From NCBI RefSeq assembly GCF_963921235.1, contig NC_086097.1, forward strand, positions 115,136,001-115,200,000: 64,000 nt of DNA, written 5' to 3'. A program made the position numbers and the translations under genes. Shown piece after piece: positions 7,833-52,284 of this stretch (positions are counted from its first letter, which is position 1; every line of letters starts with the position of its first letter). Below the pieces are notes generated by a model. The model ran no database searches and was not told the DNA's origin. It saw nothing but the letters and a program-made list of their open reading frames with translations. The DNA is from Mobula hypostoma (Eukaryota).

Positions 7833-7994
7833 CAGGTAATTTATACTTCTTGAATTGAATTAAATTGAGTTCATATAAATAGTTGGTACTACTTTCAATT
7901 ATTGAAAAGCATTGTATTTGTATACAAAAATGATTAATTTTTAGAAGTTCACATCAGATAATTTCAGTCAGAAGGAAAGACAAGGACAGCAAGT

Positions 7995-11350: not shown

Positions 11351-11494
11351 GATTTTTAACATAACCAGAAATAAAAGGATATATTGTCATAATGTTATCT
11401 GAAGTTGGGTTGTGGGTTACGAATACACAACATTGTACATTAATCAGCCACGTAGTCATTTCACATAAGAAAGCAATTATCATTTTTACTCCAA

Positions 11495-11935: not shown

Positions 11936-11964
11936 AAATCCCTTATATCTTCTTCTATTTTATT

Positions 11965-24840: not shown

Positions 24841-27320
24841 TAACATCATTTACACCATCATAGCCAGATTACAAACCCAGCACCCGAGTGCCCTCATTAC
24901 CATCTCGGGTGACTTCAACCAGGTTACCATGGCTAGAACACTGCCCAACTTCACGCAGTATGTGAGCTGTACAACCAGAGGGGAGAGGACTCTAGATTTG
25001 ATGTACGCTAACGTTAAGGGTGCATACAGCTCCTCTCCCCTCCCCCCACTGGGAAAGTCAGATTACAACCTGGTGCATCTAAAACCCTGCTACGTGCCTC
25101 TGGTGAGGAGTAAACCTGCAACCTCGAGGACAGTGAGGAAATGGTCGGAGGAGGCTTATGAGGCACTCCAGGGTTGTTTTGAGGTGACAGACTGGCAGGC
25201 ACTCTGTGAGCCACATGGAAAAGATATTGATGGGCTCACAGAATGCATCGCTGATTTCATTAACTTCTGTGTGGACTGCAATGTTCTGACAAGAACTGTC
25301 CTTTGTTATTCAAATAACAAGCCATGGGTGACAAAGGACATTAAGGACCTCCTGAACGCTAAAAAGAGGGTGTCTAGAGATGGAAATAAGGAGGAGCTGA
25401 GGGCAATATAGAGGGACCTGAAAGCCAGGATCAGGGAGGCTAAAGACAGGTACAGGAGGAAGCGTGAGTGGAAACTCCAGCAGAACAACATGAGAGAGGT
25501 CTGGAGGGGGATGAGGACCATCACTGGGTTCCGGCAAACTAGCAACAGGGGAGCTGAAGGCAGTATAGACAGGGCCAACGGACTTAACCTGTTCTTTAAC
25601 AGATTTGACATTGTGACCCCTGCCCATCCCCCACATGAGCCATCTGTTGTCAGCCCCCAACTAACACATATTCCACTTTCCCCTCCTACCCCTCCTCACA
25701 GTCCCCCACCCTGCTCTCATGACTATACAAGAAACCACCACGGTGGGCTTCACGGCTGAACAGGTGAGAAGACAGCTGAAACGTCTCAACCCAAGCAAGG
25801 CTGCAGGACCCGATGGTGTCAGTACCAGGGTGCTTAAAGCCTGTGCCCTTCAGCTATGTGGAGTACTTCGCCATGTATTCAACCTGAGCCTGAGGCTCCG
25901 GAGGGTTCCTGTATTGTGGAAGACGTCCTGCCTCGTCCCTGTGCCGAAGACGCCGTGCCCCAGCGGCCTCAATGACTACAGACCGGTGGCATTGACCTCC
26001 CACATCATGAAGACCCTGGAGAGACTTGTTCTGGAGCTGCTCTGGCCTATGGTCAGGCCACACTTAGATCCCCTCCGGTTCGCCTACCAGTCCCGACTAG
26101 GAGTTGAGGATGCCATCGTCCACCTGCTGAACCGTGTCTATGCCCACCTGGACAAGCCAGCGAGCACTGTGAGGGTCGTGTTTTTTTGACTTCTCCAGTG
26201 CGTTCAACACCATCCGCCCTGCTCTGCTGGGGGAGAAGCTGACAGTGATGCAGGTGGATGCTTCCCTGGTATCATGGATTCTTGATTACCTGACTGGCAG
26301 ACCACAGTACGTGTGCTTGCAACACTGTGTGTCCGACAGAGTGATCAGCAGCACTGGGGCTCCACAGGGGACTGTCTTGTCTCCCTTTCTCTTCACCATT
26401 TACACCTCGGACTTCAACCACTGCACAGAGTCTTGTCATCTTCAGAAGTTTTCTGATGACTCTGCCATAATTGGATGCATCAGCAAGGGAGATGAGGCTG
26501 AGTACAGGGCTACGGTAGGCAACTTTGTCACATGGTGTGAGCAGAATTATCTGCAGCTTAATGTGAAAAAGACTAAGGAGCTGGTGGTAGACCTGAGGAG
26601 AGCTAAGGTACCGGTGACCCCTGTTTCCATCCAGGGGGTCAGTGTGGACATGGCGAAGGATTACAAATACCTGGGGATACGAATTGACAATAAACTGGAC
26701 TGGACTAAGAACACTGAGGCTGTCTACAAGAAGGGTCAGAGCCGTCTCTATTTTCTGAGGAGACTGAGGTCTTCTAACATCTGCTAGTCGATGCTGAGGA
26801 TGCTCTACGAGTCTGTGGTGGCCAGTGCTATCATGTTTGCTGTTGTGTGCTGGGGCAGCAGGCTGAGGGTAGCAGACACCAACAGAATCAACAAACTCAT
26901 TCATAAGGCCAGTGATGTTGTGGGGATGGAACTGGACTCTCTCACGGTGGTGTCTGAAAAGAGAATGCTGTCTAAGTTGCATGCCATCTTGGTCAATGTC
27001 TCCCATCCACTACATAATGTACTGGGTGGGCACAGGAGTACATTCAGCCAGAGACTCATTCCACCGAGGTGCAACACAAAGCGTCATAGGAAGTCATTCC
27101 TGCCTGTGGCCATCAAACTTTACAACTCCTCCCTTGGAGGGTCAGACACCCTGAGCCGATACGCTGGTCCTGGACTTATTTCATAATTTACTGGCATAAT
27201 TTACATATTACTATTTAACTATTCATGGTTCTATTACTACTTATTATTTATGGTGCAACTGTAACGAAAACCAATTTTCCCCAGGATCAATAAAGTATGA
27301 CTATGACTATGACTATGACT
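24841..27320 (+). mobile_element. Rex1/Babar-clade LINE, 5'-truncated, recently inactivated
   Basis: APE endonuclease end (ISGDFN, TLDLMY, LGKSDY), RT (KAAGPDG, NDYRPVALTS, GAPQGTVLSP, QKFSDD), (CTATGA)n tail, possible TSD ACTCA. A few stops and frameshifts. Confidence 0.92.
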
Positions 27321-30959: not shown

Positions 30960-33900
30960 TTGGATCCAATCGCTTTGTGGATCCAGAGCGGGCTTGCTCA
31001 CAAAATCAAAGAGTGGTTGTAGATGGGATATATTCTGCATGGAGGTTGGTGACCAGTGGTGTGCCTCAGGGACCTGGTCTGGGACCCCTACTCTTCGTGA
31101 TTTCTATAAATGACCTGGAGGAGGAAGTGGAGGGATGAGTTAGTAAATTTGCTGATGACACAAAGGTTGGGGGTGTTGTGGATAGTGTGGAGGGCTGTCA
31201 GAGGTCACAGCACGACATCGATAGGGTGCAAAAACTGGTCTGAGAAGTGGCAGATGGAGTTCAACCCAGATAAGTGTGAGGTGGTTCATTTTGGTAGGTC
31301 AAATATGATGGCAGAATATAGTATTAATATTAAGTCTCTTGGCAGTGTGGAGGATCAGAGAGATCTTGGGGTTCGAGTCCATAGGACACTCAAAGCTGCT
31401 ACGCAAGTTGACTCTGTGGTTAAGAAGGCATACAGTGCATTGGCCTTAATCAATCGTGGGATTGAGTTTAAGAGCTGAAAGGTAATGTTGTAGCTATATA
31501 GGACCCTGGTCAGGTCCCACTTGGAGTACTGTGCTCAGTTCTGGTTATTTCACTACAGGAAAGATGTGAAAACTATAGAAGGGGTGCAGAGGAGATTTAC
31601 AAGGATGTTGCCTGGATTGGGGGGCCATGCGTTATGAGAATAGGTTGAGTGAACTCGGCCTTTTCTCCTTGGAATGATGGAGGGTGAGAGGTGACCTGAT
31701 AGAGGTGTATAATATGATGAGAGGCATTGATCGTGTGGATAGTCAGAGGCTTTTTCCCAGGGCTGAAATGGGTATCACGAGAGGGCACAGTTTTAAGGTG
31801 CTTGGAATTAGGCACAGAGAAGAGGTCAGGGGTAATTTGTTTTACGCAGAGAGTGGTAAGTGCATGAAATGGGCTGCCAGCAATGGTGGTGGCAGCAGAT
31901 ACGATTGGGTCTTTTAAGACACTCTTGGATAGGTACATGGAGCTTAGAAAAATAGAGGGCTATGGGTAACCTTATATCCAGGTGCAGACTGTAATAGTGA
32001 CTATAACCCAATAGTATGTCATGTAAAAGTAAACCTTAAAAAACTAAAGAAGCAAATACCTGAACAATCCCTTGACTACTTGTAATTAATTAAAGAAGAT
32101 AACTTAAGACACAAATTTACAATTGAAGTAAGGAATAGATTTCAAAGTCTAGAAATAGAACCTGTTGAAGATGATAGCAATCATGTAGAAATGAAATTTA
32201 ACTCTCTAAAAGATGCCTTGGTAGAATCAGCAAAGTCAGTGATTCCTAAGAAAGAAAAAAACACAAAGAATAAATGGATGACAGATGAAATCAAAAATCT
32301 AATGGAAGAAAGGAGATGGAAGAAAGCAAATACTATAGAATATAAATCCTTAGATAAAAAGTTAAAAGCTTATGTCAAAAAACCAAAGGAGAATGGTTAA
32401 ACCAGGAATGTGAGCAAACAGAAAGAATCCCTATTACTGATCCAAAAAGGGTGCATCAACAAATCAAGAATATCACTGGTAAAAAGCTCCCCTGTGCCTC
32501 AGGTGGATGTTTGAATGCAAAGGACGGTACCATTATCATGAAAAAAGATGGGATATGAACAGATGGACTGAATATATTCAGGAATTGTTGAAGATGATCC
32601 AGGCGAAAAACCAGAAATTAAGAAAAACATTGAAGATCCAAGTATTTTAAAATCTGAAGTTCATAATGCAATAAATAAGATGAAGAAAGGAAAGGCAGCA
32701 GGTCCTGATGAATTAGTAATAGAACAAATTATTGCCCTTGAAGATTATGGAATTGAGAAACTTACTGATTTAATCAATGACATTTATGAGACTGGAATAA
32801 TACCAGAAGAGATGAAAAAATCAGTATTTATCACTCGTCCTAAGAAAGCTGGAGCAATAGAATGTGAATTACATAGGACCATAAGTTTAATGACTCATAT
32901 CACTAAGATACTTCTAAGAATTTTGATGACAAGAGGTAAAAGTAAGATACAAGCTGAAGTAGACAAAGAACAATGTGGTTTTGTGAAAGATGAAGGTACA
33001 AGAAACGCAATATTGATTTTAAGGATACTATCAGAACGAGCTATTCAAGTGCAAAAAGATTTGTTTGTTTGTTTTATCGACTACACAAAAACATTTGATA
33101 AAGTGAAGAACAATAAGTTATTTGAAATATTACAGAAAACTCTAGATCTAAATTCTAAAGACCTCCGCCTAATCAGAAATCTGTACTGGGAACAAACTGC
33201 CACTGTAAGAATAGATGGAGAAGTGAGTCAGTTTACAAAAACCAAGAGAGGCATTAGACAAGAGTGTGTTTTCTCCCCTGATTTATTTAATATGTACAGT
33301 GAAACAACATTACAAAAAATAAGAGACATCTTGAGAATCAAAGATGGCGGTGAAAACATCAATAATTTCAGATATGCAGATGAGACTGTGTTCATTGCAA
33401 GTACGGAGGAAGAACTACAAAACTTAATTGTTATAATTGTTGAAGAAAGTGCAAAAATGGGTCTATCTATCAATTGCAAAAAGACAGAATGTATGGTGAT
33501 ATCCAAAAAGAAGGAGAATCCTATCTGCAGGCTTAGAATAAACGGAGAAGACATAAAACAAGTAAAGAACTTTGGCTACTGTGGAAGCTGGGTGACATCA
33601 GATGGCAGGTGCGACTTGGACATCAAAAGAATAGGGATGGCAAAAGACACCTTTACGAGAATGAAGAGTAAACTAACCAATACTAAACTAGGCATGGCAA
33701 CCCGCCTCAGACTACTGAAATGTTATGTTTATCTAGTTATGTTATATAGCTCAGAATGTTGGACAATATCTAGTAACATGAGGAAACGAATTGTAGCAGC
33801 AGAAATGTAGTTTTTGAGAAGGATGCAGAGAATATCATGGACAAAACAAATATCTAACGAGGATGTCATGAACAGAGCAAATACAAAAAGAGAAATAATG

Positions 33901-34245: not shown

Positions 34246-35096
34246 CGAAGTGTTGTGGACATGATCTGAAATGTCCCTAACCCTATCATCTGTGTGTCCT
34301 GTTCACGTCCACAGAATCTCATGTCCCCTCACTATTGAGTCCCCTATCACTATCACTCCCTTCCTCTCTCTCTTTCCTTTCTGCACCACGGACCCATGCT
34401 CAGTGCCTGTAACCTGGTCACTGTGGCATTCTCCCAGGAGGTCATCCCCCACAAAAGTATCCAAAGTGGAATACTTATTTTTGAGGGGAATGGCCACAGG
34501 TGTGCTCCGCTCTAACTGCCTATTCACATTTCCATTCCTCCTGACAGTCACCCAGCTACTCATCTCCTGCAACTTCGGGGTGACTACTTCCCTGAAACTT
34601 TGATCGATTATCTCCTCCCTCCCCCGTACAAGCCGAAGGTCATCCAGCTGCTGCTCCAGATTTCTAACACGGTCTTCAAGGAGCTGCAGCTGGATGCATT
34701 TCACACAGATGTAGCTCCCTGGTAAACTCTGGGTTTCCCAGGACTCCAACATCCACATGAAGAACATAAAACCACCATTTACTACACCGGGTATAATAAG
34801 AGAAAAACAAAAAGAAATCCTTAACAGAAGCTTACCCAGAGCCAACGCCTCCTCTGAGCTGAAGCCTCCTTCGAGCCAAAGCCTGACGCTTCTACTCTCG
34901 CCACTGGCCTACTCCCGACAATGGCCATTCCACTTGTCCGTCCTGTACTTTTATTTAGTTGCATTGCTCTGTACCCGCTGCCGATAGGTCTTCTGCAATG
35001 GCCAAACGCCCGCGAAGCTTTCTTTTAAAACAAGCGTCGCCGATCTGTGAGAAACCTCCTTGCAGTGCTGAATGTGGCAGAAACTCAATGCATAAA

Positions 35097-36026
35097 TGCG
35101 TACCTGCATTTAACACCAATACCATCGTCAAATTTGCAGACGACACAACAGTGATCGGGTTGATCTCCAACAGAGACGAATCAGCGTACAGATCAGAGGT
35201 ACGGAACTTAGTGAGCTGGTGCTCAGAGAACAACCTGTCTCTTAATACAGCAAAGACGAAGGAGCTAATTATCAATTTTGGAAAGTCACAGGATGACGAG
35301 TACGCCCCAGTCTACATTAACAGAGACATAGTGGAGAGAGTGTCCAGTTTCAGGTTTCTGGGAATACATATCTCAGAAGACCTTACATGGTCCACTAACA
35401 CCACTACAATAGTTAAGAAAGCACAGCAACGCTTGTTTTCCCTCAGGACGCTGAAGAAAGCTGGTCTACCTGAACAGATGCTGGTGACCTTTCACTGCTG
35501 CACCATAGAGAGCATCTTAACATACTGCATCTCTGTGTGGTATCTCAGTTGTACAGCAGCTGATGGGAAAGCACTTCAGCGGGTCGTCTTTAGCGCACAG
35601 AAGATCATCGGGACACAGCTTCCAGCCCTGGAGGACACCTACAGCTCTCGCTACCTAAGCAAAGCTACAAACTTCTGTAAGGACAATACACACCCATGTT
35701 ATCATCTGTTTGAACTTCTTCCATCTGGCAGATGTTATAAGATTTTCTATGCCCGCTCTTCCAGACTGAAAAATAGCTTTATCCCCAGAGCTATAACTGC
35801 TCTGAACCAATCGATCAAGCATCATCCGTAAATTTGTTATATGCTACTTTAATACTGGTTTTATGGTTGCTGGTTGTACTGGCTGGTTACTTGATTTTAT
35901 TTATTATTTATTTATTTTATTTGTTGTTTTATAGCATTGAGTATGGGAGTTGCAAACTCATTTTCGCTGTATTGGTGCATGACAAATTTTACTATGCAAT
36001 GACAATAAAGATATTTCATTTCACTT
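35097..36026 (+). mobile_element. Rex1-type LINE, 5'-truncated, open RT C-terminal frame
   Basis: VKFADDTTVIGLI, LNTAKTKEL, KKAQQRL, open to 35831; TSD CATAAA at 35091 and 36027. Confidence 0.9.
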
Positions 36027-36992: not shown

Positions 36993-38939
36993 TGTGGGCT
37001 GCTCTTCAAAGTTTAGGTATGAGGAGGTGTCTGAAAGTTGCTGCCTGGCCTTAGCAAGGTAGAGTGTATCCTGCCACTTTGTAATGCAAGTATACCTCTG
37101 TTAGTTTGTCACCTCCTGTCTGAAGTACATCATTACCTCAGATAGTTCTTAATGAACCAGATTTGATCCCCTGCCTTGATGACAATGATAGATTAGTCTA
37201 GAGAAAGCTGAGTGTAGTTCACAACATTTCACTGATCCACATTTTTGAACCGTTAGATGTGCCTGAATCGATTCCCTTTTGTAGTATAATGCAATGCTAC
37301 ACAAATTGATGAAGCTTGTACTTGATATGAAGATTGGACTGTGTCAATGTTGCTATTAATAGGTGGGCATATATTTGAGTAGATCAGTTAATGTACTGTT
37401 GCTGTTTTGTTGTTTATTGCGTTCTGTGTTGTTCTGCTGAATGTTGTGGGCATGCTATTTTCTCACTGGAATGTGTGGCAAGAATTGTGGGCTGTCTCCA
37501 CCACATTCTTAGGTACCGGTCGTTAACGCAAATGACGTCTTCCACTGCATGTTTTGCTGAACATATAATAAATGAATCTGTATCTAATCTCAGCAGGATT
37601 TGATCTCATCTGATCTCTTTGTTGATGGATTAACTTTATCTAGTCAAGCAGTACAATTCAACAGCCATTGGCCAACATGACCAGTAGCAGTACAACTGAG
37701 GATCTCCTGAGGATGGAGAAGACATTCTGACTCTTCACATGAAGAGTGATTCTTGCAAGTGGTAGTCAGCTGGAGTATTGCTTCATGGCTGAGCAAAAGC
37801 TAAAGGTAGTATTCAGCAAGGAGAATTTCCATGTCGTTTCTGAAACAGTCCATGAGTCTCATGTCAAAATGGATTGCTAGACGCCCCCTGACTGTACGTC
37901 ACTATGCCACCACTTCTGATCCCAACAAGATAGAACAGACAAGGGACCATGATGCAGGAGACAGGGAACAATTTGGAACATCAGCAAATAATATGATTTT
38001 TAGTTTTAGACTATGATCAAAGAATCATCTTTTTAGCAGAAGTTCAAAAGGTTATTTAACTAGTCACTGGGTGTTCATGAAGGCAAAGCAAGGACAACCT
38101 TGTCAGATTTGTCTTCTTATTTCCCTGAATGATTATGTGTTTTCTCTACAGTTATATCTTGACACAACAGCTGAGGAATCTGATCACCACAGCAAATGGT
38201 ATTTGAAGAGCAAGCACGTTGATAAGGGTTGGACTCACGTGAACAAAGACGGCAAATCAAATAAGGAGAGGAATTTTCTGCCTTAATGTCAATGGGCTTT
38301 TAAAATAAACTAGTGGTTCACTGCTATCACTATTGATTTTAACATTTTATCTGAGATTATTTAACTAATCAAATTTAAATTCCCCAGTTGCCATGTTGGG
38401 ATTTAGTCAAAGCCTCAGGATTATTCATCTAAATGTTTGCACCACCATACTGAATTATGGACTAATTCTTAAACTCTTTCCCAAGAATAGTGCATATTGA
38501 ATGAAAATCACAATAACTGCTATTGCTGAAAATCTACAATAAAAACAGAAAATGACAGAAATTCTCAGCAGGTCAGGAATTGTCCATGGAAAAAGTGAGT
38601 TAATGCTTCAGGCTGGACTTTTGTAATAGACATTAGTCATCTCCAGATTAAGATTGGTCGTGACTCCTTGGACTTAGTCAGAAGTTCAGTCAGTTGAACA
38701 GGATGTGACCTCTCTCTAGCCTCCAAAATATTTTAGTAGTTTCATATCTAGTGAAAGTTGGAAAAGTAATTAACTTCAAATAGTCAAGAAACAAGATATT
38801 ATTGTTCATGGAAATGAATCTAAATTGTAAACTTAGTTAGGGATCTAGTAAGGCAGAGGAGTGAAAACTGGCACGTGTTTGAAGTAGGAGTGACTAACGG
38901 TGCATTTGGACTGGGGATTCAACCATTCACTATCTGATT

Positions 38940-39275
38940 AGAGCATAGACATCTACAACGCATTAAAGGCCCTTCGGCCCACAATGTTGAGCCAACCATG
39001 TAACCAACTTTAGAAACTACCTAGAATTTCCCTACTGCATAGCTCTCTATTTCGCTAAGCTCCATGTATCTACCTAAGAGTTGCTTGAAAGACCCTGTTG
39101 TTGTTTCTGCCTCACCTCCTCCACCATCGATGGTATGAAAAACTTAACCCTAACATCCCCTCTGTATCTACTTCCTAGCACAAAGTTATGCCCCCTTATG
39201 TTAGCCATTTCAGCCCTGGGCGGGAAATACCTCTGGCTGTTCACACGATCAATGCCTCTCATCATCTTTTACATC
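38940..39275 (-). mobile_element. CR1/HER1-type LINE 3' end
   Basis: ORF 39074-39265 MMRGIDRVNSQR..RGH. Confidence 0.85.
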
Positions 39276-39879
39276 TTTTGATTAATGGCTTGGATCGTGT
39301 TATCCTGAGTTTATTCTAAGTTTGCCAGTTACATAAACTATGGGCAGAAGGATAAATTGCAAAGAAATAGGAATCAATTGTGGGTGTGTTAAACTGTACC
39401 AGATGCATTCCGACACTTATAAGTAGGACTAGGATACTTGAATAAAAAAGAAATATAGATATTAATTAAACAGCAGAAAGCAAATAGTGGAAGTCCAGAG
39501 ATTTAGGGATTCATGTGTATTAAATTATAATGTTATCTGCTTGGATTTATTACAATTCATGGATTCAGCATGAAATTGGTATGTACTTGATCATTTTCAT
39601 ACACGAGTGTGACGACAGAAATGCAAAATACAAAGAAACATGGCAAGAGGCTGCTGTAAATCTGATAGATGTTTAGATTAGGCTTAATTAGTAACAATCA
39701 ATACTAGAAAATTCTTTGTGTGAGCAAATAATCACTGCAATTTGTTTCGTCAATAGGGCTGAGATTGAGTGAAGCATATTTAAGATTTCTCCGGCAATGA
39801 AATGGTATTCTGATTAAAAAGCCACTTCAGTGATTTGAGAAAATATTTCATTGAAAACAATAATTATTAGTCAGTGTAG

Positions 39880-40370
39880 GAAAATCTTCAACAAGTCAGG
39901 CAGCACTCACGGAGAGAGACAAAAATACTTCAATGAAATGTAATATTTGGTCAGAACTGGAGATATGGTAGCACTCACAAAATGCTGGAGAAACTCAGTA
40001 GGTTAGGCAGCATCTATGGAGCAGAATAAAAAGTTGACATTTTGTGCCGAGACCTTAAGGAAATGGGAAGAAGTCAGAATAAGAAGGTGGGGAGAGAAGG
40101 AGAGCCATTGGTAATCTTATCAAATGACTGGACCCAATCTGTTGACACAGCATTGAGGCACAAGAGACTGCAGATGCTGAAGTCCGAAGCAACAATCTGT
40201 TGGGAGATCTCACTGTGTCAGGCAGCTTCTGTGAATACAGAGGGATGGTCGATGTTCTGGGTTGAGATCCTGATCCTGATTGTTCTCGCCCTGAAACATC
40301 GAACAACCATCATCCTACGCAGGTGTTGCCTGACCTGGTGAGTCCCTCGAGCAGTTTGTTTTTTTTTGGC
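39880..40370. mobile_element. Cluster of PLE-derived termini, including an inverted pair
   Basis: Repeated AATGCTGGAGAAACTCAG/CAGGCAGC motifs; orientation flips at ~40275. Confidence 0.7.
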
Positions 40371-40557
40371 ATAGATGTCGCAAACATGGACTCTGTTGCA
40401 GGCTCCATATCCCCTGCAGATGCCCATCTGCACAACAGGTTCAGCAATTGTGCTCATGAATACGTCCCAACTAATTCATGTTTCATTATGGTGGGATTTA
40501 ACTCCTTCTTTTGATTCTAGTCTTGTCGAGACTTGAGCAAAGCTATGCTTCTTGCTT

Positions 40558-40905
40558 ACATAGAAACACAGAAAACCTACAGCACAATACAGGCCCTTTT
40601 GCCCGCAATGCTGTGTCGAACATGTACTTACTTTAGAAATTACCTAGGGTTACCCATAGCTCTCTATTTTTATAAGCTCCATGTACCTATCCAGGAGACT
40701 CTAAAAAGACCCTATGGTATTCACCTCCACCACCATCGCCAGCAGCCCATTCCACACACTCACCACTCTCTGAGTAAAAACCTTACCCCTGGCATCTCCT
40801 CTGTACCTACTTCCAAGCACCTTAAAACTGTGCCCTCTCGTGATAGCCATTTCAGCCCTGGAAAAAGGCCTCTAACTGTCCACACGAACAATGCCTCTCA
40901 ATCTT
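40558..40905 (-). mobile_element. CR1/HER1-type LINE 3' end
   Basis: ACATAGAAAC tail; reverse complement of ~31720-31970 joined to 34160-34245. Confidence 0.88.
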
Positions 40906-40939
40906 CTTACGGTTGTCCTTGTCTGAGAAAGAGAACTAT

Positions 40940-41174
40940 TGTCTTGACTGATGCTGGAAACAAATGGTATTCGTTTAGTACTTAGTTATTACTTTCAACA
41001 GCGGTGTTGGCACTTAACTTTCAGTTTGAGTGTTTTAGTTAATGGCTCTGTTGGCTTAGCTTTCATTGTTTTCCTTTCCCTTGAAACCCTGCCAAGTTCG
41101 CATTAAAGTCTGTGAACTGTCGACTCACTTCAGTGTCTTGCTCCGCTCTTGGGCCATATCTGAAAGTCCTGACA
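40940..41174 (+). mobile_element. Possible solo LTR or small TIR element
   Basis: TGTCTTGACT...AGTCCTGACA inverted ends and ATTAAA ~70 nt from the 3' end. No clean TSD. Confidence 0.4.
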
Positions 41175-41189
41175 ATAGATTTAGGTGAA

Positions 41190-41427
41190 TGTTATGTTTT
41201 GTAATTTCCAAACCTTAAACTAATTCAAACAAAGGCACAAGAGTCCAAATATGCTGGTTGAAGTCCCAGTTTACTTTAAGCGAGACGCGCACATACCACG
41301 GGGCAGCGTGATGATGTATAAATCATGTATTTGTACATATAACCCGTAATGAATTAATTAAACAAACAAGAATGCTTAATCAAGCAACATACACCTACAA
41401 GATTACTAAAATATTAAATACACAACA
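41190..41427 (-). mobile_element. Probable solo LTR, same family as 9712-9957
   Basis: TGTTATG...CACAACA; reverse-complement similarity along its length. Confidence 0.65.
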
Positions 41428-41684
41428 ATGTACTAGTGGAATATTTTGTGTTTACTGCTGCTGTGACACTCTTTACCATTATAAAAAACATACAACTGCA
41501 ATTTTATTGAATGCCACATTGGTTAGCATTTATTAACAGTCAGTAATTTCTTAAATTTAAAATTATTCATTAGAATGTAAAATTAGGCCATGTTGTAAAT
41601 GAACAATGTCTTCAAGAAATATTGCTAACACCAGCACTGAAGGAGACTTTAAACAACATTGCGATATCACCTTTACTTGACAAC

Positions 41685-42030
41685 ATAATCAGCAAATACC
41701 ATAACTGTCTCTTCAACAGTACAATGCAATACATAATAACAGAGCGATAAGTGATTTGTATATTAGTAGTTAAATTAAATAAGTACTGGAAAGTAGAAGT
41801 TAAAAATATAAGTAGCAAGGTTGCACTTATGGGTCCAATGTCCATTCAGAAATTGGATGGCAGAGGGGAAGAAGCTCTTCTTGAATTGTTGAGAGTGTGC
41901 CTTCAGACTTCATGCACCTCTGTCCTGATGACAGCCATAAGAACAAGGCAAGATCTGGGTGATGGGGGACACAGCCTTTTTGAGGCATCTCTCCATTACT
42001 CCTTGAAAATGTCCTGGATACTACGGAGGC
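41685..42030 (-). mobile_element. Rex1-type LINE 3' fragment
   Basis: Minus strand reads NNSRRASSPLPSNF, a frameshifted form of the Rex1 RNSFFPxAIR terminus, plus 3' UTR. Confidence 0.6.
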
Positions 42031-42308
42031 TGCTACTCAGGAGAAATTACTTCACCTGAGGAGTGGTGGAAACCTATCACACTCTACTCAATAAGGATAT
42101 TGAAACCCACTCTGTTGTGTATTCAAGTTAGAGGTCCAGACTCCCCAACCCTCTGATCAGCCCTCAGCCCTTCTCCACCCATTCTCTTCAGATTTTGATC
42201 AGAACCTGCAGCTAGTCACTATCATTAACACCTCAATTATCCCCACTAATCCTGACTCTGGGAAAGAGTATCTTTTACAAAGGAATGGGGGAAGGAATTG
42301 ATGTAGAG

Positions 42309-42374
42309 CAGAGGTTCCCAACATTTTTATGCCATCAAGCAAGGGGTCCGTGGCCCCTAGGTTGGGAACCCCTG
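42309..42374. mobile_element. 66-bp hAT (Charlie-like) MITE
   Basis: TIRs CAGAGGTTCCCAAC / GTTGGGAACCCCTG; 8-bp TSD ATGTAGAG / AGGTAGAG. Confidence 0.88.
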
Positions 42375-42522
42375 AGGTAGAGGGAAAGATCAGCATGTAT
42401 TTGTATGTTTGGAATAGCTAAAGCTAAGGGATAAAGCTGTGTATAGCATAGAATATATCAATTGTATTGGAGTACAGTAGTGTGTAGCATTTTACATCAT
42501 CCATGCAAGTATTTCACATTTC

Positions 42523-42830
42523 TGGGGCAGCACGGTAGCGTAGCAGATAGCAATTTGTTTATAACATCAGCTCTAAGATCAGGTTTCGATTTCCACCACT
42601 GTCTGTAAAGTGTTTGTACGTTCTTCCTGTGACCAAGTGGGTGTCCTCTGAGTGCTCCAATTTCCTGCTAAGTTCCAAAAATGGTTAGGATTAGTGAGTT
42701 CTGGGCACATCATGTTTGCATCCGAAGTGTGGTCACACTTGCAAGCTGCCCGGCACAGGCCTTGATGATTTGATTTGACATAAAAAATGCTGAGTGTTTT
42801 GACAAAATCTGACAAATAAAGCTAATCTTT
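42523..42830 (+). mobile_element. tRNA-derived V-SINE
   Basis: GGGGCAGCACGGTAGCGTAG head, B box, V-domain, same tail as 5026-5312. Confidence 0.88.
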
Positions 42831-43159
42831 CCTTTTTTTTCGTAGTTTTTGCATTTATATTTTCGAGATTCATGCTCAGTTTTTGAAAAGAGTTCTAGAG
42901 TATGCTTCTCTGGGAGCCTTGACAGGCTAAACTCTAAGAATAGCATTCTTAGAATTTCCTCTAAGAACGGGGAAACTACCTCCAGGAGTGAAATTTAGGA
43001 ATGCAATAATAAAGGAGCCGTAGAACTCTCAAGAGCAGAATAAAAACATAGCGATATCTACTTACCGGTGCCAATGCAGAAGGGGAGAAGGACAACATTC
43101 AAAATATTCCCTTTTGTTGCAAAGACTTTACAGGTTAGAAATGCCTTACTTAGGCCACA

Positions 43160-44235
43160 AGGTTCAAAGTAGATTTATTATCAAAATACTGCATGTATAG
43201 ATTACTACCGTGAGTGAGATTCATTTTCTTATCGGTATTTATAGCAGAATAGAGAAATACAATATAATCAATGAGAAACTGCACACAAAGACTAACAAGC
43301 TACCAATGTGCAAAAGGTGACAAACAGCAAATTAAAAAATAAAACTACTGTACATAGGAAATCCTGAGCGCATGAATTTTTATTGAAAGTGAGTCCAAAG
43401 ACTGTGAAATCAGTTCAGTGTAGTGGTGAGTGAAATTATTCAAAAGTACATTTATTACCAAAATATGTACGTATAAATTTGACAGCCTTGAGATTTGTCT
43501 GCTTGCAGGCAGCCACAAAGCAAGAAACCCAAAAGAACCCACTTGAAAAAAAGACCAATACTCAATGCACGGCGACAGAGGGTAAAAAACACAGATCATG
43601 CAAACAACAGAAGTAAGCACCAGCATTCCAAACCAGATCGAGTCCATGCACCCAAATCCCAGACCAGCCAGAGTAGGCCCACAGCCTCAGTCTCAGTTCA
43701 TCATATAGCGGAGCAAATCACTGCGAAACTCGCAGACAAGATGCGCGTAGCAGCCAGAGTGGTCTCACAGGCTCGGCCCTGCGGAGAGAGGAGTGAATGT
43801 CGGGGGAAAGCGAGTGGAACTTGCCAGACTCTTGCTGCTGGTCCTGACAGCCTGTCTTTCCAGTCTATCCAGGCTGGCGTTTAAATGATCCAAGCAGCAG
43901 ATGATGCATGCACTAGGACCCGGGGCCTGCTGTAGCCATACGCTCTAGACCTAGATCTTGCTGCCCAGCCTGAAACTGATCTTGATCTTGGCACTTTGAT
44001 CAATCCAACCCTGCTCCCAGTAAAGGTGGGTGGGCAGCAAAACTCCTCCACCTTGACTCCTCTCCGAAACTTTGCTCCAACTCTACCCCAACTCCAGCAC
44101 CATCTCCAACTCTGACACCATCTTGAACTGCTCCAACTTTGCATGGCTCATACCTGAGACAGCTTCACCTTGGCTTGCCTCTTCTTTGTTTGCACTGTCA
44201 GTTTACCACAGTTTCACTCAGAAAAAGTGTTATTA
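43160..44235 (-). mobile_element. Two adjacent minus-strand LINE-tail / non-autonomous elements
   Basis: Tails at ~43160 and ~43440 (TTCAAA..GTA.ATTTATTA.CAAA); body similar to 46151-46760 and 10860-11350. Confidence 0.65.
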
Positions 44236-44391
44236 ATAATTATATAGCAAAAGAAATGGATGAAGTTTAAAAATGGTTAGAGTTTTATTGTATTTATCTT
44301 TTAACTGTTATTTGACAGAGGTATATAATTTACTTTTCATAAATTTTGTACACTATTTTCAATTTCCTAGTCAAAATATTAAGGAAAACAC

Positions 44392-44975
44392 CACAACGCG
44401 CAGGTATCCAATCTGGTGAGACGAAGGAGGAGCCAGGCCCGGAGTCACCCCATAGTGCCCGGAACCTCCAAGTGTTGCAAACTAAACCCTCGAACATGAA
44501 GTCTAACAGGAGGTGGATCAAATGGCCTGCAGCTAACATGACTTCACTGTGGAAGCAGTTTGATGACGATGTTAACCAAATTCTGGAGGAAACGGCAAAG
44601 GGAGGGGTTTTCAGGAAGCTGCAAACCATGACAACAATTAGCGAGGTGTCTCCCAGTGGAGGTTGGTTGTAGGGGATTCATAGCCCGTTCTTTAGTTAGA
44701 GCCTTCAGCATTTTGGGCATCAAGGGAGAGAGGAAGAGGAGAGCCATCCGCAATACCACCAATGCGGCAGAGAGGGCCTCAAGATGGCTGTGGCTCAAAA
44801 GAGGGGAGCCATGGAGTCATAAGTAGTTAACCATCTGGACACAAGCTGGGGTCTGATCAGCCCTGGCTGGGTCACCTGGAGGAGGGTATATGATGTTGAA
44901 AGACCCAAAACACCCGATGATTCCAGGAACATCACTGAAGATGTGTCCAGAAGCATCAATAGATGTATGTACACA
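44392..44975 (+). mobile_element. Internally deleted Hero-clade element
   Basis: GETKEEPGPESPH..IKWPAAN..WKQFDDDVNQILE joined at 44640/44641 to ARCLPVEVGCRGF..AAERASRWLWLKR, then 3' UTR. Confidence 0.8.
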
Positions 44976-46150
44976 GCTCAAGCTCCTGTAACGGTCTGCA
45001 TGAAACAGTTAGATGCCTGACAGTACCTCAGGGTCAGTGAGTCACAGATTTAGTTTTCCCTTCAGCAAATAATCAGACAATTCCCAAGCATTTGAGATAT
45101 ATCATTTCTCAATCCACATTCAGCTCAATCTGCCAAATTAATTTTTGCCAAAGGCCTTTTAGCAGTTTGACAAAAAAGGTCATTGAAAAACAATCAAGGA
45201 CTGAACAATTAGAAAATGCAATATCAGTTAATGTCACTTTAGGTGTCCTTTGTTAACTTAGTGTACATAATCAGCTGTAAAATACTGCAACAGATGTAAA
45301 TATCAACTCGTACTAATGTTGAAAACTAAAGTACTGGACTGAAACAGTTGGTTGTGAAACGAAATCTCACTAGACTAATAACAAGGGAATGAGGCCAATT
45401 TTGTAAGTCATAAATAATTCCAGTCCATATGGTCAAAACTTTACTTCTGATTATCTTCAGGAATGATTTCTGTTCATCTTAAAGATATCTCAAAATAAGA
45501 ATTGGCCTATTAGCTTGCAAGCAGCCTAACAACTTCATATGGTTGCATTAAAATTTACGAGGATCTTATCATTTCACTAACTATTTTGGGTTATCTTTTT
45601 ATACTTAGAACTGAGTAAGAAAATGGGTGTAATGCATTTAGTAGGTTATTTTAATATTACTGGATCTCCTGGATACTTGAATTGCTTAGGTCTGATCAAC
45701 CCAGCCCATTACATGTCCCTACTAATATTTTGGGCAACTTTTCTGTTTAAATGGAGCTTTAAATTATTTAGATTATCAACATAACTAAAAAGTTCTGTTA
45801 GATTTGAGATCTCCACAGATAAGGTGGCATTGATATCTTTGTAATTCTTTATTCCTATTTACAAGTCTCCATTACACTGGTTTTGTTGTTTATTTATCTA
45901 TTTCAATGGAATACTTGGATGTAGATGGATGAACAATCTACATTTAGCAATCTAATTCGTCAATCAGTACAGATAAATTGACTGCAAACAAATTTTCATA
46001 CCTTTTATTCCAAAGCCAGTTAATTATTTATTATATGAAATAACCTCAAGAGGCCTTATATCTGTGCAGCCCTGTAGCCCTCAATGGTGCGGAGAGTTGT
46101 GCCTGTAATGGAGCTGGTTTTCATAGCTGGGGGAGGTAGTGCAGACCTAT

Positions 46151-46760
46151 TAAGATTCAAGATTCAAGTACATTTATTGTGAAAGAATGTATCAATCATA
46201 CAACTTTAAGATTTGCTTGCTCAAAGGTAGTCACAAAGCAAGAAACCTGTAAGAACCCAATGTAAAGAAAAAAAAGAATACAACTGAAAAATAAAAGCTC
46301 AATGTACAAGAGAAAGAAAAAAAAACACATATCGTATAAACACTTGAAGCGAACAACAGCACTCTGAACCAAAAGTGAGTCCTCAGATCTGATTCCTGGA
46401 ACAGCTTGAAATAGGCCCAAAGCTTTGCTCGTCAGTTCATCATATTAGCGGGCACGGAGCACAGCAGCCGGGGCAGTCTTCATAATCTCAGTGCCATGGA
46501 GATGTCCATCGCAGAGAACAAGTGAAATTGGCTCTTGTCCCAACTGACACCCTGTCTTTTCAGTCCATCTCAGCCAGCGTTTAAATTGAACCTACGACAG
46601 AACAGCGAAAGGCTCCAGCACCCTGGAGAAAGCAGTGAACATTGTGCAAAGTCGTCTCTGGCCCCTGATCTGGGCTGGCGATTAAATTGTCTAAACAACA
46701 CTTTGTACCCCATGCTAGGATCTATGCATTGCTGCTGCGACTTGCTCTGGGCCCAGATTT
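46151..46760 (-). mobile_element. Non-autonomous retroelement inserted in the provirus
   Basis: (AAGATTC)n tail at 46152; collinear with ~43440-43955. Confidence 0.7.
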
Positions 46761-47947
46761 AATTGTTGTTGACTTTGTACTGATACTACATGGATGGCCC
46801 TGGATGGGAAAATGGATGGCCCTGTGCCGACGCCTTGTTACTCTTGTGTGGGAATGAGCGGAAATCCTGCTACCACCAAGTGGGTGCAAAAGATCTCTCC
46901 ATCAACCTGAAATTGCTCATGCATTGGGTGTTGATGAAGGGGAATTCTACACATGGTGCAGAAGTTTTCACTGGGATAAAGGGGGAACATTATAGAATGG
47001 ACTAGGTCTCACTCAGCCCTCACCATTTGTTCTCTGATCTTATAAGCTGTTAGTAAGCCCTGGCTTTCCACTATTTTAATACAGTACAGAGTCTTCCAAG
47101 TACATTTCCCCCATTTACTTGTTTATAGATTTATGCCTATATCTGATATGGATTTCCACATTCAGAGATGGAGGTGGTCTCAAGGCTATGAGAAATAACA
47201 TTAATAAGATTGCTGAATATGTTGGGGAGTATGACTGGCACAGAAGGTCTGTAACTGCTGGCATTCTGAACTAACCACTTCAGAATTCCTTCAGCATCAG
47301 CTGGAGTTGTGGTGCATACTGCCTGCAAACTCTGAATAGTCAAAGGTCCAACAACGTAATAGGCCATATGTACTGGGGAAGCTGTAGTGGCTTCCTATAC
47401 AGGAACACGTCCCTGTATTATTCTTTTATTGGCCATAGTCAACGTTTTTCAGTCATGCAGGTGCACATCCCCAAGCATCTGTTCTCTAGGCTTCATTAGT
47501 ACTTCTAGTGTTTACTGGTGTGGGCACCATCTCATGTGTGTCTGGAAGAAATACACAACATCCCCCTGTATTGGGATGAAGAGACGGGTCACCAGGATTT
47601 ATCAAATAGGCATGCAATCCCTACCCGAGTGCTTGGTTTCTATTTAAGAAATGGCCAATTTGTTGTCCCCATGTATGAATTATTGCTCCATTGTTGGGAT
47701 CTGTTGCAAATTGTGATGGCCTGAGTCTAGCAGGTCATACAGCGGGGTTTGATCTGTCTAACCTGCATCCAACCTTATGTTCAATCCCTTCATCATTCCG
47801 GCCTCTGACTTGAAGAGTAAAATACTCATCAGGTTCAATTTGAGGAGCAGTCGAGATACTAACCCATTTTCCTGATATATTATTAATATATTTATAATAT
47901 TGACCAGCATTTGCCTGTGGAACTGCTGGAAATCTGGATGTTGACCT
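46761..47947 (-). pseudogene. gag: Foamy-virus-like gag
   Basis: TIQSLQAVCTTTPADAEGILKWLVQNA..VPVILPNIFSNLINVI..EC..RLCTVLK/IVESQGLLTAY..LVHSIM..EIFCTHL aligns with recalled PFV capsid PIQHIRSVTGEPP..IPIWLGRNA..FPVTTPDL..IINAI..DC..QLGNVIKGIVDQEGVATAY..LVSGII..ETFIQHL. The upstream frame (~47947-47490) has two internal stops and GKW and GDP motifs. Confidence 0.82.
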
Positions 47948-48042
47948 TTTATAGCACTAGGTGTGGTGCAGTAGCACTTGTCGAGAGCTCTCTGAGTTGG
48001 ATTACTCTAAATAATAATTCTTCCTATATTTAGTATATAACA

Positions 48043-48060
48043 TGACAACATCAGGCACCA
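48043..48060 (-). other. Degenerate primer-binding site, tRNA-Lys-like
   Basis: TGGTGCCTGATGTTGTCA versus the Lys1,2 PBS TGGCGCCCAACGTGGGGC (10/18 identical). The first 13 nt derive from TGGCGCCCGACGT by three CpG transitions. Lies ~100 nt before gag. Confidence 0.55.
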
Positions 48061-48062
48061 AC

Positions 48063-49182
48063 TATTATAGTATTGGGTTTGCTGACCATAAAGTTCTACA
48101 CTCAAACGAATACTTTAAGCCCTATCGGATATAAATAGCCACAACTACTCTCACTAAAGGGATATTATACTGTAACTACCCCGTCTTCAAAGACTAGTTC
48201 CCTGCATATTCTCCACAGCAAGTTTAGCTACGAGGGGTGATTGATAAGTTTGTGGCCCAGGTAGAAAGAGTCAATTGTAGAAAACCTAGCATATTTATTT
48301 TTCAACATAGTCCCCTCCTGCATTTACGCACTTAGTCCAGCGGTCGTGGAGCATATGGATCCCTTCTTTGTCGAAGGCGGCATCTTGGACGGTGGTCCAC
48401 AGCAGGGGCGATTGATAAGTTTGTGGCCTAAGGTAGAAGGAGATGAGTTATACAGCTCTCGTTACATGCACATGCAGTTCAACGCTTTGAGTGATGATGC
48501 AGAAAGTTTGAAGTTAATAACTCATCTCCTTCTACCTTAGGCCACGAACTTATCAATCACCCCTGCTGTGGACCACTTTCTGGAGGTCCAAGACGCCGAC
48601 TTCTACAAAGAAGGGATCCGTATGCTCCACGACCGCTGGACTAAGTGTGTAAATGTAGGAGGGGACTAGGTTGAAAAATAAATGTGCTAGGTTTTCTAAT
48701 ATTGACTCCTTCTACCTTAGGCCACGAACTTGTCAATCACCCCTTGTATTTAAGAGCTCCCTACCAAGCAAGAAGATAGTTATAATTAACAAAGTAGTTT
48801 AAAGCACAGTTCATTTATTTTCAGTAATACACATTTAAATCCAGACACACTCTTAAAACAAAACTCACAGAGGATTTCTATCTTAAACATTTCCAAATTA
48901 CAAATCATTTCTAAAACACAAAACATCTCTCAAACACAAAGCATTAAGGATTTTAAAAACACAAGTATAACTCCTATAAATTAAAAAGACATATAAGTTT
49001 AAAAATAAGTTTCTCAGACACAAATTATCCATCACCTATCTGAAGCTAGAGGAATGGATTCTTTTTCACCCCGTGTTTCTTCCACGTTTTTTGATGTTCT
49101 GTATCTGATTAGTAATACGCCTGAACTGCTCTCCACACTTATACCCTTTTTTCCACTTGGGTGACTTCACACACATATGACA
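48063..49182 (-). promoter_or_regulatory. Candidate 5' LTR of the provirus (upstream boundary uncertain)
   Basis: Ends 2 nt before the PBS; minus-strand TATAAG at ~49138-49143 and AATAAA at 48814-48819; TGTCATAT at 49182. U3 may continue beyond the CR1 insertion (51245+). Confidence 0.45.
48231..48746. mobile_element. Fold-back mariner-derived MITE
   Basis: TA|CGAGGGGTGATTGATAAGTT...AACTTGTCAATCACCCCTTG|TA; arms 48231-48451 and 48517-48746 carry the mariner C-terminus FYKEGIRMLHDRWTKCVNVGGD(Y/*)VEK. Confidence 0.92.
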
Positions 49183-49199
49183 TTTGTTTCGGACCTATC

Positions 49200-51244
49200 A
49201 GTGGCAGCAACTGACTTCGATGAAGGAGTGTTTCTTGCAAGTCAGAGGCAGTTATTTAAAACGAGAGCTTCGTGGGCATTAGTCCATCATGTGGGGCCGA
49301 TCAGTGGTTGCCACTGAGCTCGACAAACTAAATAAAAGTACAGAAGGGATAAGTGGAGCGGCCATTGTCGGGGGTAGGCCAGTGGTGAGAGTAGAAGCGA
49401 TAGGCTTTGGTGAAAATGAGCTTCGGGTAAGTGGGTAGGTGGACTTCGTCTTTGGTTTTACTTTGTATTTTTTTTGAGGCATAGAGGGCATGTCGGTAGG
49501 GCTAGTATTTTGCTCTGGGTGTCGGATGTGGGAATCCTGGGAATCTTCCCGTCTCCCAGATGGCCACATCTGCACCAGGTGCACCGAGATGCAGCTCCTG
49601 AGAGACCGTGTTAGGGATCTAGAGCTACGGCTCGATGACCTACAGGTTATTAGGGAGAGTGAACAGGAGATCGAGAGGAGCTACAGGGAGTTAGTCACCC
49701 CAAGGCTGCAGGAGTTAGATAAGTGGGTGACGATCAGGGAAGCCAAGAAAAGAGCTCAGACAGTAGAGAGCACCCCTGTGGCCATCCCCCTCAGTAATCG
49801 TTACCTCGTTTTGGATGCGGTTGGGGGGATGACCTGACAAAGGATGACAACGGTGATCGGGTCTCTGGCAATGAGCCTGGTTTCCTGGTGGAGAAGAGAA
49901 AGGATAGTCATAGGGGATTCCATAGTGAGGGGTACAGACAGGAGGTTCTGTCACCCTGATAGAGATACCCGCATAGTGTGTTGCCTTCCACGTGCCAGGG
50001 CACGGGATGTCTCGGATCAGGTGCAAAGTATTCTGAAGGGAGAGGGTGAACAGCCAGAAGTCTTGGTGCACGTTGGTACCAATAACATAGGTAGAAAAAG
50101 GGAGGAGGTCCTGAAGAGAGAATTCAGGGAGTTAGGTAGGAAGCTGAAAAGCAGGACCTCTGGGGTAGTAATCTCAAGATTGCTGCCTGTGCCACGTGCT
50201 AGCGAGTGCAAGAATAGAATGATCAGGTGTATTAATGTGTGGCTGAGAACCTGGTGTAGGGAGCAGGGCTTCAGATTCCTGGATCACTGGGGCTTCTTCT
50301 GGGGGAGGTACAACCTGTACAAAAAGGACGGGTTACACCTGAACCCAAAGGGGTCCAATATCCTACCGGGCACATTTACTAGAGCTGTTAGGAAGGGTTT
50401 AAACTAATTTGGCAGGGGGATGGGAACCGGAGTGATAGGGCTGAGGAAGGGGAAAACGGAAATAAATCAAAGGTAGCATGCAACAGAGATGATAGAAAGG
50501 ACAGGCAGGAGACGAGGAGAGAATTCAAAATGCAGAGATGCAAAGGGACTTGGGATTCCTTGCGCAAGATACCCTAAGGGTTAACCTGCAGTTTGAGTCG
50601 TTTGTGAAGAAGGCAAATACAATGTTGGCATCCATTTCTGGGGGTATAGAGTATAAGAGCAGGGATGTGATGTTGAGGCTCTATAAGGCCACCCTTGGAA
50701 TATTGTGTGCAGTTTTGGGCTCCTTATTTTAGAAGGGATTAACTGACAGTGTGAGAGGGTTCAGAGAAGATTCACAAGAATGATTCCAGGAATGAAAGGG
50801 ATTACCATATGAGGAACGTCAGGCAGCTCTTGGGTTGTATTCCCTGGAGTTCAGGAGAATGAGGGGGGATCTCATAGAAACATTCCAAGTATTAAAAGGC
50901 CTGAACAGATTAGATATGGCAAAGTTATTTCACATCTAGGACAAGAGAGCACAACTTCAGGATTGAAGAACGTTCACTTAGAACTGAGATGCAGAGAAAT
51001 TACTTTAGTCAGAGGCTGGTAAACCTGTGGAATTTGTTGCCACAGGCGGCAAGTAATTAGGTGTATTTAAGGCAGAAGTAGATAGGTTCTTGATTAGCCA
51101 AGGCATCAAAGGGTATGGGGTGAAGGCAGGGGAGTTGGGGATAACTGGAAGAATTGGATCAGCCCATGATTGAATGGCGGAGCAGCCTTCAAAGGCCGAA
51201 TGGCCTACTCTTGCTCCTATATCTTATGGTCTTATGGTCTTATG
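49200..51244 (+). mobile_element. CR1-type LINE with ORF1 and most of ORF2 deleted
   Basis: ORF1 49490-50407 (frameshifted): CSGC..CTRC finger, heptad Leu, SGNH blocks GDS, VHVGTNN, DGLHLN. Jumps at ~50530 to the RT C-terminus (QRDLG); (CTTATGGT)n tail. Confidence 0.9.
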
Positions 51245-52284
51245 AACATTTCCTCAGGACCCTTTTCACACAATTGGACTAAAACCATCTTGCAAACATG
51301 GTTCCACTATAAATGTTGTAAAGTTAATTTCCATTTATGACCGGAAGTTAAACAAAGCATGGTTAGGAGTATATTTACGATTGTTTTGATCTTACACATG
51401 GCAACTGCTGTGTTTAGAAAGCAGAGATTAACAAAATACCAAGAGTGAATATCCATCACAAGAGTGGTCCCACTGAGGCAGCAGAGGAGACCATGGTCCA
51501 AAATGTCACAAACTCCAGACATTGGATCTCCATTCTCCAGTCTCTGACCCAGACTTGTCCATTTGCTGAAAGCAGTGGCACAGGGAGACAGGGTGGTGAA
51601 GAAGGTGTTTGGCACTCTGTCCTTTATCAGTCATTGTACCGAGTGTAGGAATTGGAAAGATATGTTACAGTTAAATTGGACATTGGTGAGGCCACATGTG
51701 GAATATTTTTTACAGTTCTGGTTGCTGTGTTGTAGGAAAGAAATTAACAAATAAGAAGGAGTGCAGAAAATATTTATCAGAATGCTGTATTATAAATACA
51801 AGGGATTCCTCAGATGCTGGAAATCTAGAGCAACATGCAGAAAATGCTGGAGTATCTCAGCAGGCCAGGCAACATGGTTGAAGGGGAAAGGTTGAGAGTG
51901 ATTGTGGGTGGAGTTTAGGAGGATGATGGCGCCAACGACGACTCCTTTGCTATCAATCTTCATTTTCGGTATACTCATTAACTTGACTCCCACAGTCATC
52001 AGCGGCAATGAATTCTGCAGAATCGCCATGCTCTGTTTTAAGAAATTCCTTGTCATCTCTGTTCTAAAGAGTTGTCCTTCTATTCTAAGGATGTACCGTC
52101 TAGTCCTAGACCCTCCTACTATAGGAAACATCCTCTCAATGTTCACTCAACTGTAAGCCTTTCAATATTCGATGTATCAGACTTCAATGTAATTCAGATC
52201 TTGAATGCTGATATCTTCTACATCAGGAATTTAATTTCATTTTATCTAATTACCTCCAAGAGGACCACACCTAGTCATAAGGTT

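Follow-up and report, generated by a model that had tools for sequence, protein, structure and literature searches.

A probable 3'-truncated foamy-like endogenous retrovirus and its sister copies in the genome of Mobula hypostoma

How much of a foamy virus, if any, lies concealed on the minus strand of positions 42135-49182 of the DNA studied here, the window (64 kb in length; C1:115136001-115200000 of the 3.48-Gb assembly of Mobula hypostoma)? The window consists of vertebrate-type DNA rich in repeats, and the longest open frame of the interval, on either strand, has no more than 130 amino acids (aa). A preliminary description had read all of it as a hidden endogenous foamy provirus, in which later insertions separate a candidate long terminal repeat (LTR), a Lys-like primer binding site (PBS), a gag-like frame and env-like fragments. 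The reading reached here is narrower: 49182 to ~46770(-) is very probably an inert copy, truncated at its 3' end, of a foamy-like endogenous retrovirus (FLERV) that is old and present many times in this genome. Of the claimed provirus, only the 5' third is retroviral, a stretch of 2.4 kb with a miniature inverted-repeat transposable element (MITE) included; the foamy-like remnant had been recognized correctly there, and everything below ~46770 is without support.

The 5' remnant and its limits

The extent of the remnant is defined by comparison (blastn) with 22 sister loci, which represent 19 distinct places. All 22 match the window from 46766/46805 to 48229 with 69-79% identity, and 9 of the 19 places also match 48757-49194 (66-84%). 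Five loci cease to be homologous at 46805/46806 and one at 46766; the limits first given for the gag block, 46761-48230, fit the sister copies. The other border of the LTR is provided by two loci, L018 and L011, in each of which the 5' block recurs in direct orientation (L018 474-835 vs. 4870-5225, 77.7% identity). Because the recurring block diverges from the 5' one directly after a common ...ATCACA, whose window equivalent is 48063, the LTR end is set at that position. The full LTR runs from its TG at 49182 to 48063 and measures ~590 bp without the MITE; its start had been placed correctly, and its end, formerly put at 48749, lies beyond the MITE.

Two nucleotides past the LTR end, at 48060-48043, lies the PBS-like 18-mer TGGTGCCTGATGTTGTCA. 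An expected PBS was obtained from the tRNA-Lys(CTT) genes of the host itself: the tRNA-Lys(CTT) 20-mer has 17 exact matches in the genome, against none for the reversed control, and ARAGORN calls tRNA-Lys(ctt) in all four loci checked. Scored against tRNA-Lys alone, the window site agrees with this expectation at 10 of 18 letters, a figure that rises to 12 when CpG decay is taken into account. At the homologous place, all eight copies compared match 10-11 of 18 letters, whereas only 4-44 of the ~10,000-12,000 positions of each locus agree equally well. A Lys-type PBS, as looked for in a foamy-like endogenous retrovirus (ERV), is found in this sense, and both the Lys-like site and the short leader of the preliminary description (~95 nt from the PBS to the ATG position of the sister copies) hold. 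Four sister copies have ATG where the window reads AGG (47947-47945). As a separate observation on the host's tRNA genes, nine exact tRNA-Lys(CTT) 3'-end matches fall within 70 kb at G000:C12:116457375-116527301; one of them (L027) is verified by ARAGORN as a tRNA-Lys(ctt) gene, and the cluster is probably a tRNA gene array.

The gag that follows is broken. Its frame survives in three segments (47935-47471, 47448-47077, and 47077-46778) with 3, 3, and 2 stops, eight in total, and at least two frameshifts; the longest open stretch comprises 85 aa, at 47394-47140. The retained ~1.17 kb corresponds to ~60% of a gag that spans ~1.9 kb in sister copy L020. The proposed gag-like frame of ~1.2 kb is accordingly right in size and location (47947-~46770, in the block 46761-48230) and wrong in being one frame. 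Stop counts in the three minus-strand frames are 39, 22, and 23 for 46761-48230, with open stretches of at most 85 aa, and 32, 26, and 35 in frames of 391 codons for 44976-46150, which looks random. On these counts and open stretches, the gag-like signal sits in 46761-48230 and not in 44976-46150.

Profile searches agree. Among 125 stop-to-stop open reading frames (ORFs) of at least 35 aa, taken from both strands of 41900-49400, a single one has a retroviral Pfam match: 47140-47394(-), to PF20672 (Gag_FV_central, the conserved central domain of spumavirus Gag; E 3.2e-4, 20.8 bits). When 41000-50500 is read through in six frames with stops as X, the match to PF20672 reaches E 2.7e-5 and 24.3 bits; it extends over window 47343-47071 and takes in positions 2-94 of the 173 in the profile. 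The sole other solid Pfam match of 41000-50500 is the GDSL esterase of a plus-strand long interspersed nuclear element (LINE), at 49.8-50.4 kb.

Could the remainder of a provirus nevertheless lie downstream, as first claimed, with env-like fragments scattered between later insertions down to 42135 and pol alone missing? At the 5' end, LTR, PBS and gag do follow one another in this order, and later insertions exist, namely the MITE (48230-48756) and two repeats (43444-43552 and 46166-46270). The DNA beyond gag nevertheless speaks consistently against such a remainder. By blastn, 41500-46765 matches none of the 22 sister loci, save for an unrelated 144-nt repeat (43159-43298). The stretch of L020 from 2104 to 6118 has no blastn match in the whole 64-kb window, and tblastx of internal parts of L012, L016, L019, and L020 gives no retroviral match in 38000-52000; the 26 matches obtained there all stem from a transposon within L012 (at 40653-40914 and 50852-51344). 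Pfam families of reverse transcriptase (RT), integrase (IN), protease, and envelope are without a match at E<=1 on either strand of 41000-50500. The absence of pol and env is thus covered by Pfam mainly for 41000-50500, and for the whole window by blastn against sister copies. A second LTR is not found in the window with both LTR halves as queries (best E 0.022 over 31 nt), and there is no 3' LTR in the 46 kb downstream. Instead of two LTRs with genes between them, the window holds one LTR and no detected pol or env. Together with the 26-35 stops per frame in 44976-46150, this makes a whole hidden provirus extremely improbable. Of the original proposal, the absence of pol is borne out (no RT or IN by Pfam, no match to L020 2104-6118). 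The env-like fragments have no support from Pfam, blastn, or tblastx in the window, nor from Pfam in the sister copies, and the segments 42135-42308, 42375-42522, 42831-43160, 44240-44390, and 44976-46150 have neither a sister-locus match nor a retroviral Pfam match at E<=1.

Table 1. Features of the truncated foamy-like copy in the window.
Feature	Position	Strand	Basis
5' LTR, upstream part, TG start at 49182	48757..49182	-	homologous by blastn (66-84% identity) to 9 of 19 distinct sister places, out to 49171-49194
MITE-like later insertion within LTR	48230..48756		nested inverted repeats I1-I5, TA on both sides, absent from sister copies
Remaining (downstream) part of 5' LTR, with its end ...CTATAATA at 48063	48063..48229	-	second LTR-like copies in L018 and L011 diverge from 5' copies exactly here
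Decayed primer binding site, tRNA-Lys(CTT) type	48043..48060	-	10 of 18 letters vs. host-derived expected PBS
Leader, ~95 nt, PBS to sister-copy ATG position	47948..48042	-	junction alignment, 8 copies
Broken gag lacking its start codon and 3' end, first ~1.17 kb retained	46770..47947	-	42-63% identity to sister gag ORFs by tblastn
Foamy-type Gag central (capsid-like) domain, N-terminal half	47071..47394	-	PF20672, E 3.2e-4 (ORF), E 2.7e-5 (stops as X)

Sister copies and the foamy-type assignment

The class of the element is read mainly from its relatives within the genome. A search with the 85-aa ORF gave 160 candidates, of which 150 were scored; 80 six-frame matches are listed, so that the family comprises at least 80 gag-bearing copies, and the ten best non-self matches are 44-65% identical. 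Across the genome, PF20672 has three matches (37.7, 35.8, and 30.1 bits), all over the curated cut-off, and none in 14 control genomes. The three loci concerned (L021-L023) are DNA homologs of the window gag (69-78% identity). In L011 and L012, the gag ORF after the homolog of the window ORF matches PF20672 at 88-130 (E 6e-4 and 1.4e-4), continuing the positions 2-94 of the window copy. The Gag central domain is therefore below threshold in the window copy itself and is recognized through three sister copies; the search against spumavirus profiles that the preliminary description had called for gives Gag in this form, and no Env.

Fuller copies, for which it had proposed a search of the genome, are indeed present. 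L020 is collinear with L016, L019, L012, and L013 from the LTR through integrase (positions 347-~6118) and carries, on the same strand, a gag ORF (1388-1837) followed by RVT_1 (3495-3842, E 3.5e-6) and then by rve (5139-5414, E 7.7e-10). Downstream of gag in nine other loci, RT homologs occur in five and IN homologs in four. When the L020 RT is compared with all solved structures, its five top matches, with E 8.9e-17 to 2.3e-16, are foamy protease-RT (PR-RT) chains; Ty3 comes next, at 3.4e-5 and 1.3e-4. In the corresponding comparison for L020, the eight top matches of its IN are foamy integrase chains (E 1.3e-8 to 3e-8), followed by the integrase of human immunodeficiency virus 1 (HIV-1) at 0.15. 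Foamy-like RT and IN, in a comparison with solved structures, are thus found in a sister copy, the window copy being without pol. No protein homologs of the L020 RT ORF were scored among longer proteins. The earlier remark that RT-based screens would overlook the element applies to the window copy and not to the family, which has RT- and IN-bearing members.

No Env family follows IN in L020 or L019 by Pfam. A region of ~1.9 kb directly after integrase is common to L019 (5302-7597) and L012 (oriented 7475-9427), with 71-74% identity and no Pfam family. It occupies the place expected for env, and its read-through contains hydrophobic stretches.

An alternative is that the copy was never a full provirus at this site, having arrived truncated or having been copied in trans as a non-autonomous LTR-gag derivative. 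The copy is broken off at its 3' side within gag, the 46 kb downstream contain no 3' LTR, and many family copies are without recognizable pol (by Pfam, in ORFs of at least 80 aa, RT or IN of the element appears in only 1 of 10 loci). However, sister copies do extend beyond the break into 3' gag and pol, with L018, L012, and L019 aligning to L020 as far as 2741-2833 and L016 as far as 5756, and the alignment ends cluster on the window's side (46805/46806 in five loci), which is the pattern that a break particular to this one locus should give. Such an origin is unlikely, albeit less so than the whole hidden provirus.

Several observations weigh against the assignment to a foamy-like element. 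The PF20672 score of the window copy, 24.3 bits, stays below the curated cut-off of 30. Its gag read-through has no match among solved structures at E<=10 and, by phmmer, no true relative among 1.84 billion proteins. At ~590 bp, the LTR is short relative to those of exogenous foamy viruses (~1-1.7 kb). The PBS agrees at only 10 of 18 letters, scored against tRNA-Lys(CTT) alone, and a search of the window for the exact Lys PBS motif with up to three mismatches finds nothing, the decayed site being visible by copy alignment alone. Among families, Foamy_virus_ENV (PF03408) has no match in the genome at E<=1e-3 in a stricter first pass, nor have Gag_spuma_N (PF03276) and Spuma_A9PTase (PF03539) at E<=1e-3; a blank does not show absence in any of these cases, and the models PF03276 and PF03539 are built from mammalian foamy viruses. 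The knuckle C-X2-C-X4-H-X4-C occurs in none of 10 sister gag regions in three frames; this agrees with foamy Gag but, in copies so decayed, is weak evidence. Finally, the label "foamy-like" derives from the pol of sister copies as set against solved structures, and not from a tree.

These points bear on the possibility that the element belongs to Ty3/Gypsy or to another ERV class and resembles foamy Gag by distant descent of the capsid fold or by chance. The sub-threshold match in the window, the blank for the foamy Gag N-domain, A9 protease, and Env families, and a structure comparison made without phylogeny would all suit it. Against it stand the three sister copies that pass the PF20672 cut-off while none of the 14 control genomes does, and the linked RT and IN, which are closer to the foamy enzymes than to Ty3 and HIV-1 by 11 and 7 orders of magnitude, respectively. 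The PBS is of Lys type, as in most foamy viruses and teleost FLERVs according to the passages of PMC5512871 that treat them, and the Cys-Cys-His-Cys (CCHC) knuckle is found in none of 10 copies. In particular, the marks of the Ty3/Gypsy class are not seen: Ty3 RT scores 11 orders of magnitude worse than foamy RT, and the knuckle is lacking. A non-foamy LTR element is thus highly improbable, and the foamy-like reading is retained.

Some candidates raised during the analysis were discarded. Two phmmer matches of the gag read-through are spurious, one being a Sushi/EGF (epidermal growth factor) protein and the other a repeat protein of 1999 aa that lacks a Pfam family and reaches a BLASTP E of ~2. 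An AlphaFold2 model of the sister ORF L015:8085-8657(-), built from 16 rows, is too poor for use (mean predicted local distance difference test, pLDDT, 55; predicted template modeling score, pTM, 0.35). In the ESM Atlas, the top scores for L019:1439-1915 (0.89) go to bacterial type IV secretion system (T4SS) families with recognition below threshold, and are meaningless. A domesticated, gag-derived host gene is rejected on account of the eight stops, the frameshifts, and the presence of at least 80 decayed copies.

Age, history and neighboring repeats

The window gag differs from all 10 sister copies compared by Kimura two-parameter (K2P) distances of 0.24-0.27 (median 0.26), and the LTR-like pair of L018 by 0.235. 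If the copies radiated at once, this would amount to ~0.13 changes per site per copy and, at the rate of 1-2.5e-9 per site per year that PMC10699275 quotes for bony fish, roughly to ~50-130 million years. The age would be greater if cartilaginous fish evolve more slowly.

Contigs from public runs provide a second view of age. Those of organism A are identical to the window. Those of organism B differ at 9 of 517, 2 of 201, and 15 of 816 letters (~98% identity), and one of them bridges the truncation point (46541-47057, the 9 of 517). For organism D, contigs to either side of the break, at 46486-46763 and at 46765-47290, are ~10% different, and none bridges it. Because paralogs within the genome are at most 79% identical to the window, the contigs of organisms B and D are best read as orthologs. 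The integration would then be older than the species splits, and so would the truncation, in the case of B at least. Judged from these sequences, the copy is old and fixed. The old lineage proposed at the outset is supported on both counts, by the distances to sister copies and by a copy shared with two other organisms.

The history of the copy may be outlined as follows. In line with established retrovirus biology, the LTR would have driven transcription, a host tRNA-Lys would have primed minus-strand DNA synthesis at the PBS, and Gag would have built the capsid, before a germ-line integration became fixed. The 3' part of gag, pol, any env, and the 3' LTR may then have been lost, before the split of organisms A and B, by deletion or rearrangement beside the repeat that occupies 46104-46707. 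The LTR was split by the 527-bp MITE at some time after the ERV had integrated. At present, the window copy probably has no function.

The MITE had already been taken for a later insertion (48231-48748), and the comparison upholds this. Its inverted repeats span 48224-48753, and L020 655-727 aligns to window 48808-48228, that is, without the MITE stretch. Because of the nested inverted repeats, the TA on each side, and the sister copies that do not have it, 48230-48756 is regarded as inserted after the ERV. The arms of this MITE are 132 nt long and 92% complementary. Its summed contig depth is at least 10^5 in all four sequencing runs, which places it among the most abundant repeats of these genomes.

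Other repeats surround the element. A repeat resembling a short interspersed nuclear element (SINE) is present in two copies, 43444-43552 and 46166-46270 (wider 46104-46707), which are 74-81% alike and have high depth in the runs; the copy at 46104-46707 adjoins the point at which gag is cut off. Rfam gives no match in 41000-50500, the SINE-like repeat included. Head to head with the LTR of the ERV stands a LINE with a GDSL-esterase ORF1 (Lipase_GDSL_2, E 4.7e-9) at 49478-50404(+). LINE sequence is also present at 56.5-57.2 kb(+), LINE RT and ALKBH8_N-type tails are found further along, and other LINE RT ORFs occur at 32572-33807 (412 aa open), 26173-26784, and 34959-35828. The rve fragment at ~415-555(+) (E 1e-6) comes from a different LTR-type element and has no DNA homology to the integrase of the foamy-like family. 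Elsewhere in the genome, L017 (G000:C5, ~136.71 Mb) contains a direct repeat of 881 bp, 99.9% identical, at 3375-4255 and 7413-8293, 4 kb apart. This repeat, situated within or next to an old copy of the foamy-like family, may represent the two LTRs of an unrelated young element.

Comparison with known foamy-like elements

Foamy-like ERVs are known from many fish and amphibians, and a tRNA-Lys PBS is described for AciFLERV and AliFLERV in the sections of PMC5512871 devoted to them. "Shark FLERVs," or CmiERVs, come from the chimaera Callorhinchus milii (PMC5512871 and PMC4422223, in the parts concerned with this host), and a foamy-related clade is reported to extend across jawed vertebrates (PMC6001957, in its relevant passages). 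Within PMC10699275, the passages on cartilaginous fish report one spuma element, ERV-Spuma.0-Sca of Scyliorhinus canicula, from 12 chondrichthyans screened, including the batoids Amblyraja, Leucoraja, and Pristis; the same passages report no Gag or Env conserved domain in that study's elements from sharks and jawless fish. A limited literature search found no published foamy-like ERV of a ray or skate.

The element is thus of a known kind, since such ERVs are already known from sharks, and is a useful added member rather than a surprise. More tentatively, and with somewhat less than even confidence, the family might represent an undescribed, ancient, high-copy FLERV lineage of rays and the first FLERV of a cartilaginous fish with a recognizable foamy-type Gag central capsid domain. 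If true, foamy-like viruses infecting Chondrichthyes would already have possessed this domain at least ~100 million years ago. Since foamy viruses seldom enter the germ line of mammals, a family of at least 80 gag-bearing copies would be out of the ordinary. Fish FLERVs anchor the case for a marine, Palaeozoic origin of retroviruses, foamy viruses being the oldest traceable retrovirus lineage (PMC5512871, in its discussion of origins). Cartilaginous-fish members are few and described from Pol alone, and the ray family would add a host group and Gag-level characters. The value of the window copy lies in its being a dated marker common to related species. The family, as a possible undescribed ray lineage with a recognizable foamy-type Gag domain, is of moderate interest to palaeovirology.

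With prototype and simian foamy viruses (PFV and SFV), the ray family shares the PF20672 domain, the closest solved RT and IN (PR-RT 7o0h/7kse and integrase 3l2q), a Lys-type PBS, and a Gag with no Cys-His box. It differs from them in having no match to Gag_spuma_N, the A9 protease, or Env, and the window copy is a dead fragment. The LTR of exogenous foamy viruses exceeds 1 kb, in contrast to ~590 bp in the ray family.

AciFLERV and AliFLERV resemble the family in the order LTR, tRNA-Lys PBS, gag, pol and in having many copies per genome; as characterized in the corresponding parts of PMC5512871, they are young (paired-LTR distances of 0.2-4.9%), very long, and equipped with extra ORFs. The ray family, in contrast, is old (K2P ~0.25), with no env or accessory gene recognized. 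The FLERVs of Callorhinchus milii are likewise chondrichthyan and consist of fragmented old copies (PMC5512871 and PMC4422223, as far as their descriptions of these copies go). Compared by description alone, they differ in that their host is a chimaera and not ray-like. ERV-Spuma.0-Sca is, in the account given by the passages of PMC10699275 cited above, a spuma-type ERV of a cartilaginous fish that is old and has a foamy-like Pol, as the ray family is and has. Set apart from it by description and not by sequence, the ray family is distinguished by a Gag central domain that can still be detected, with three copies over the cut-off.

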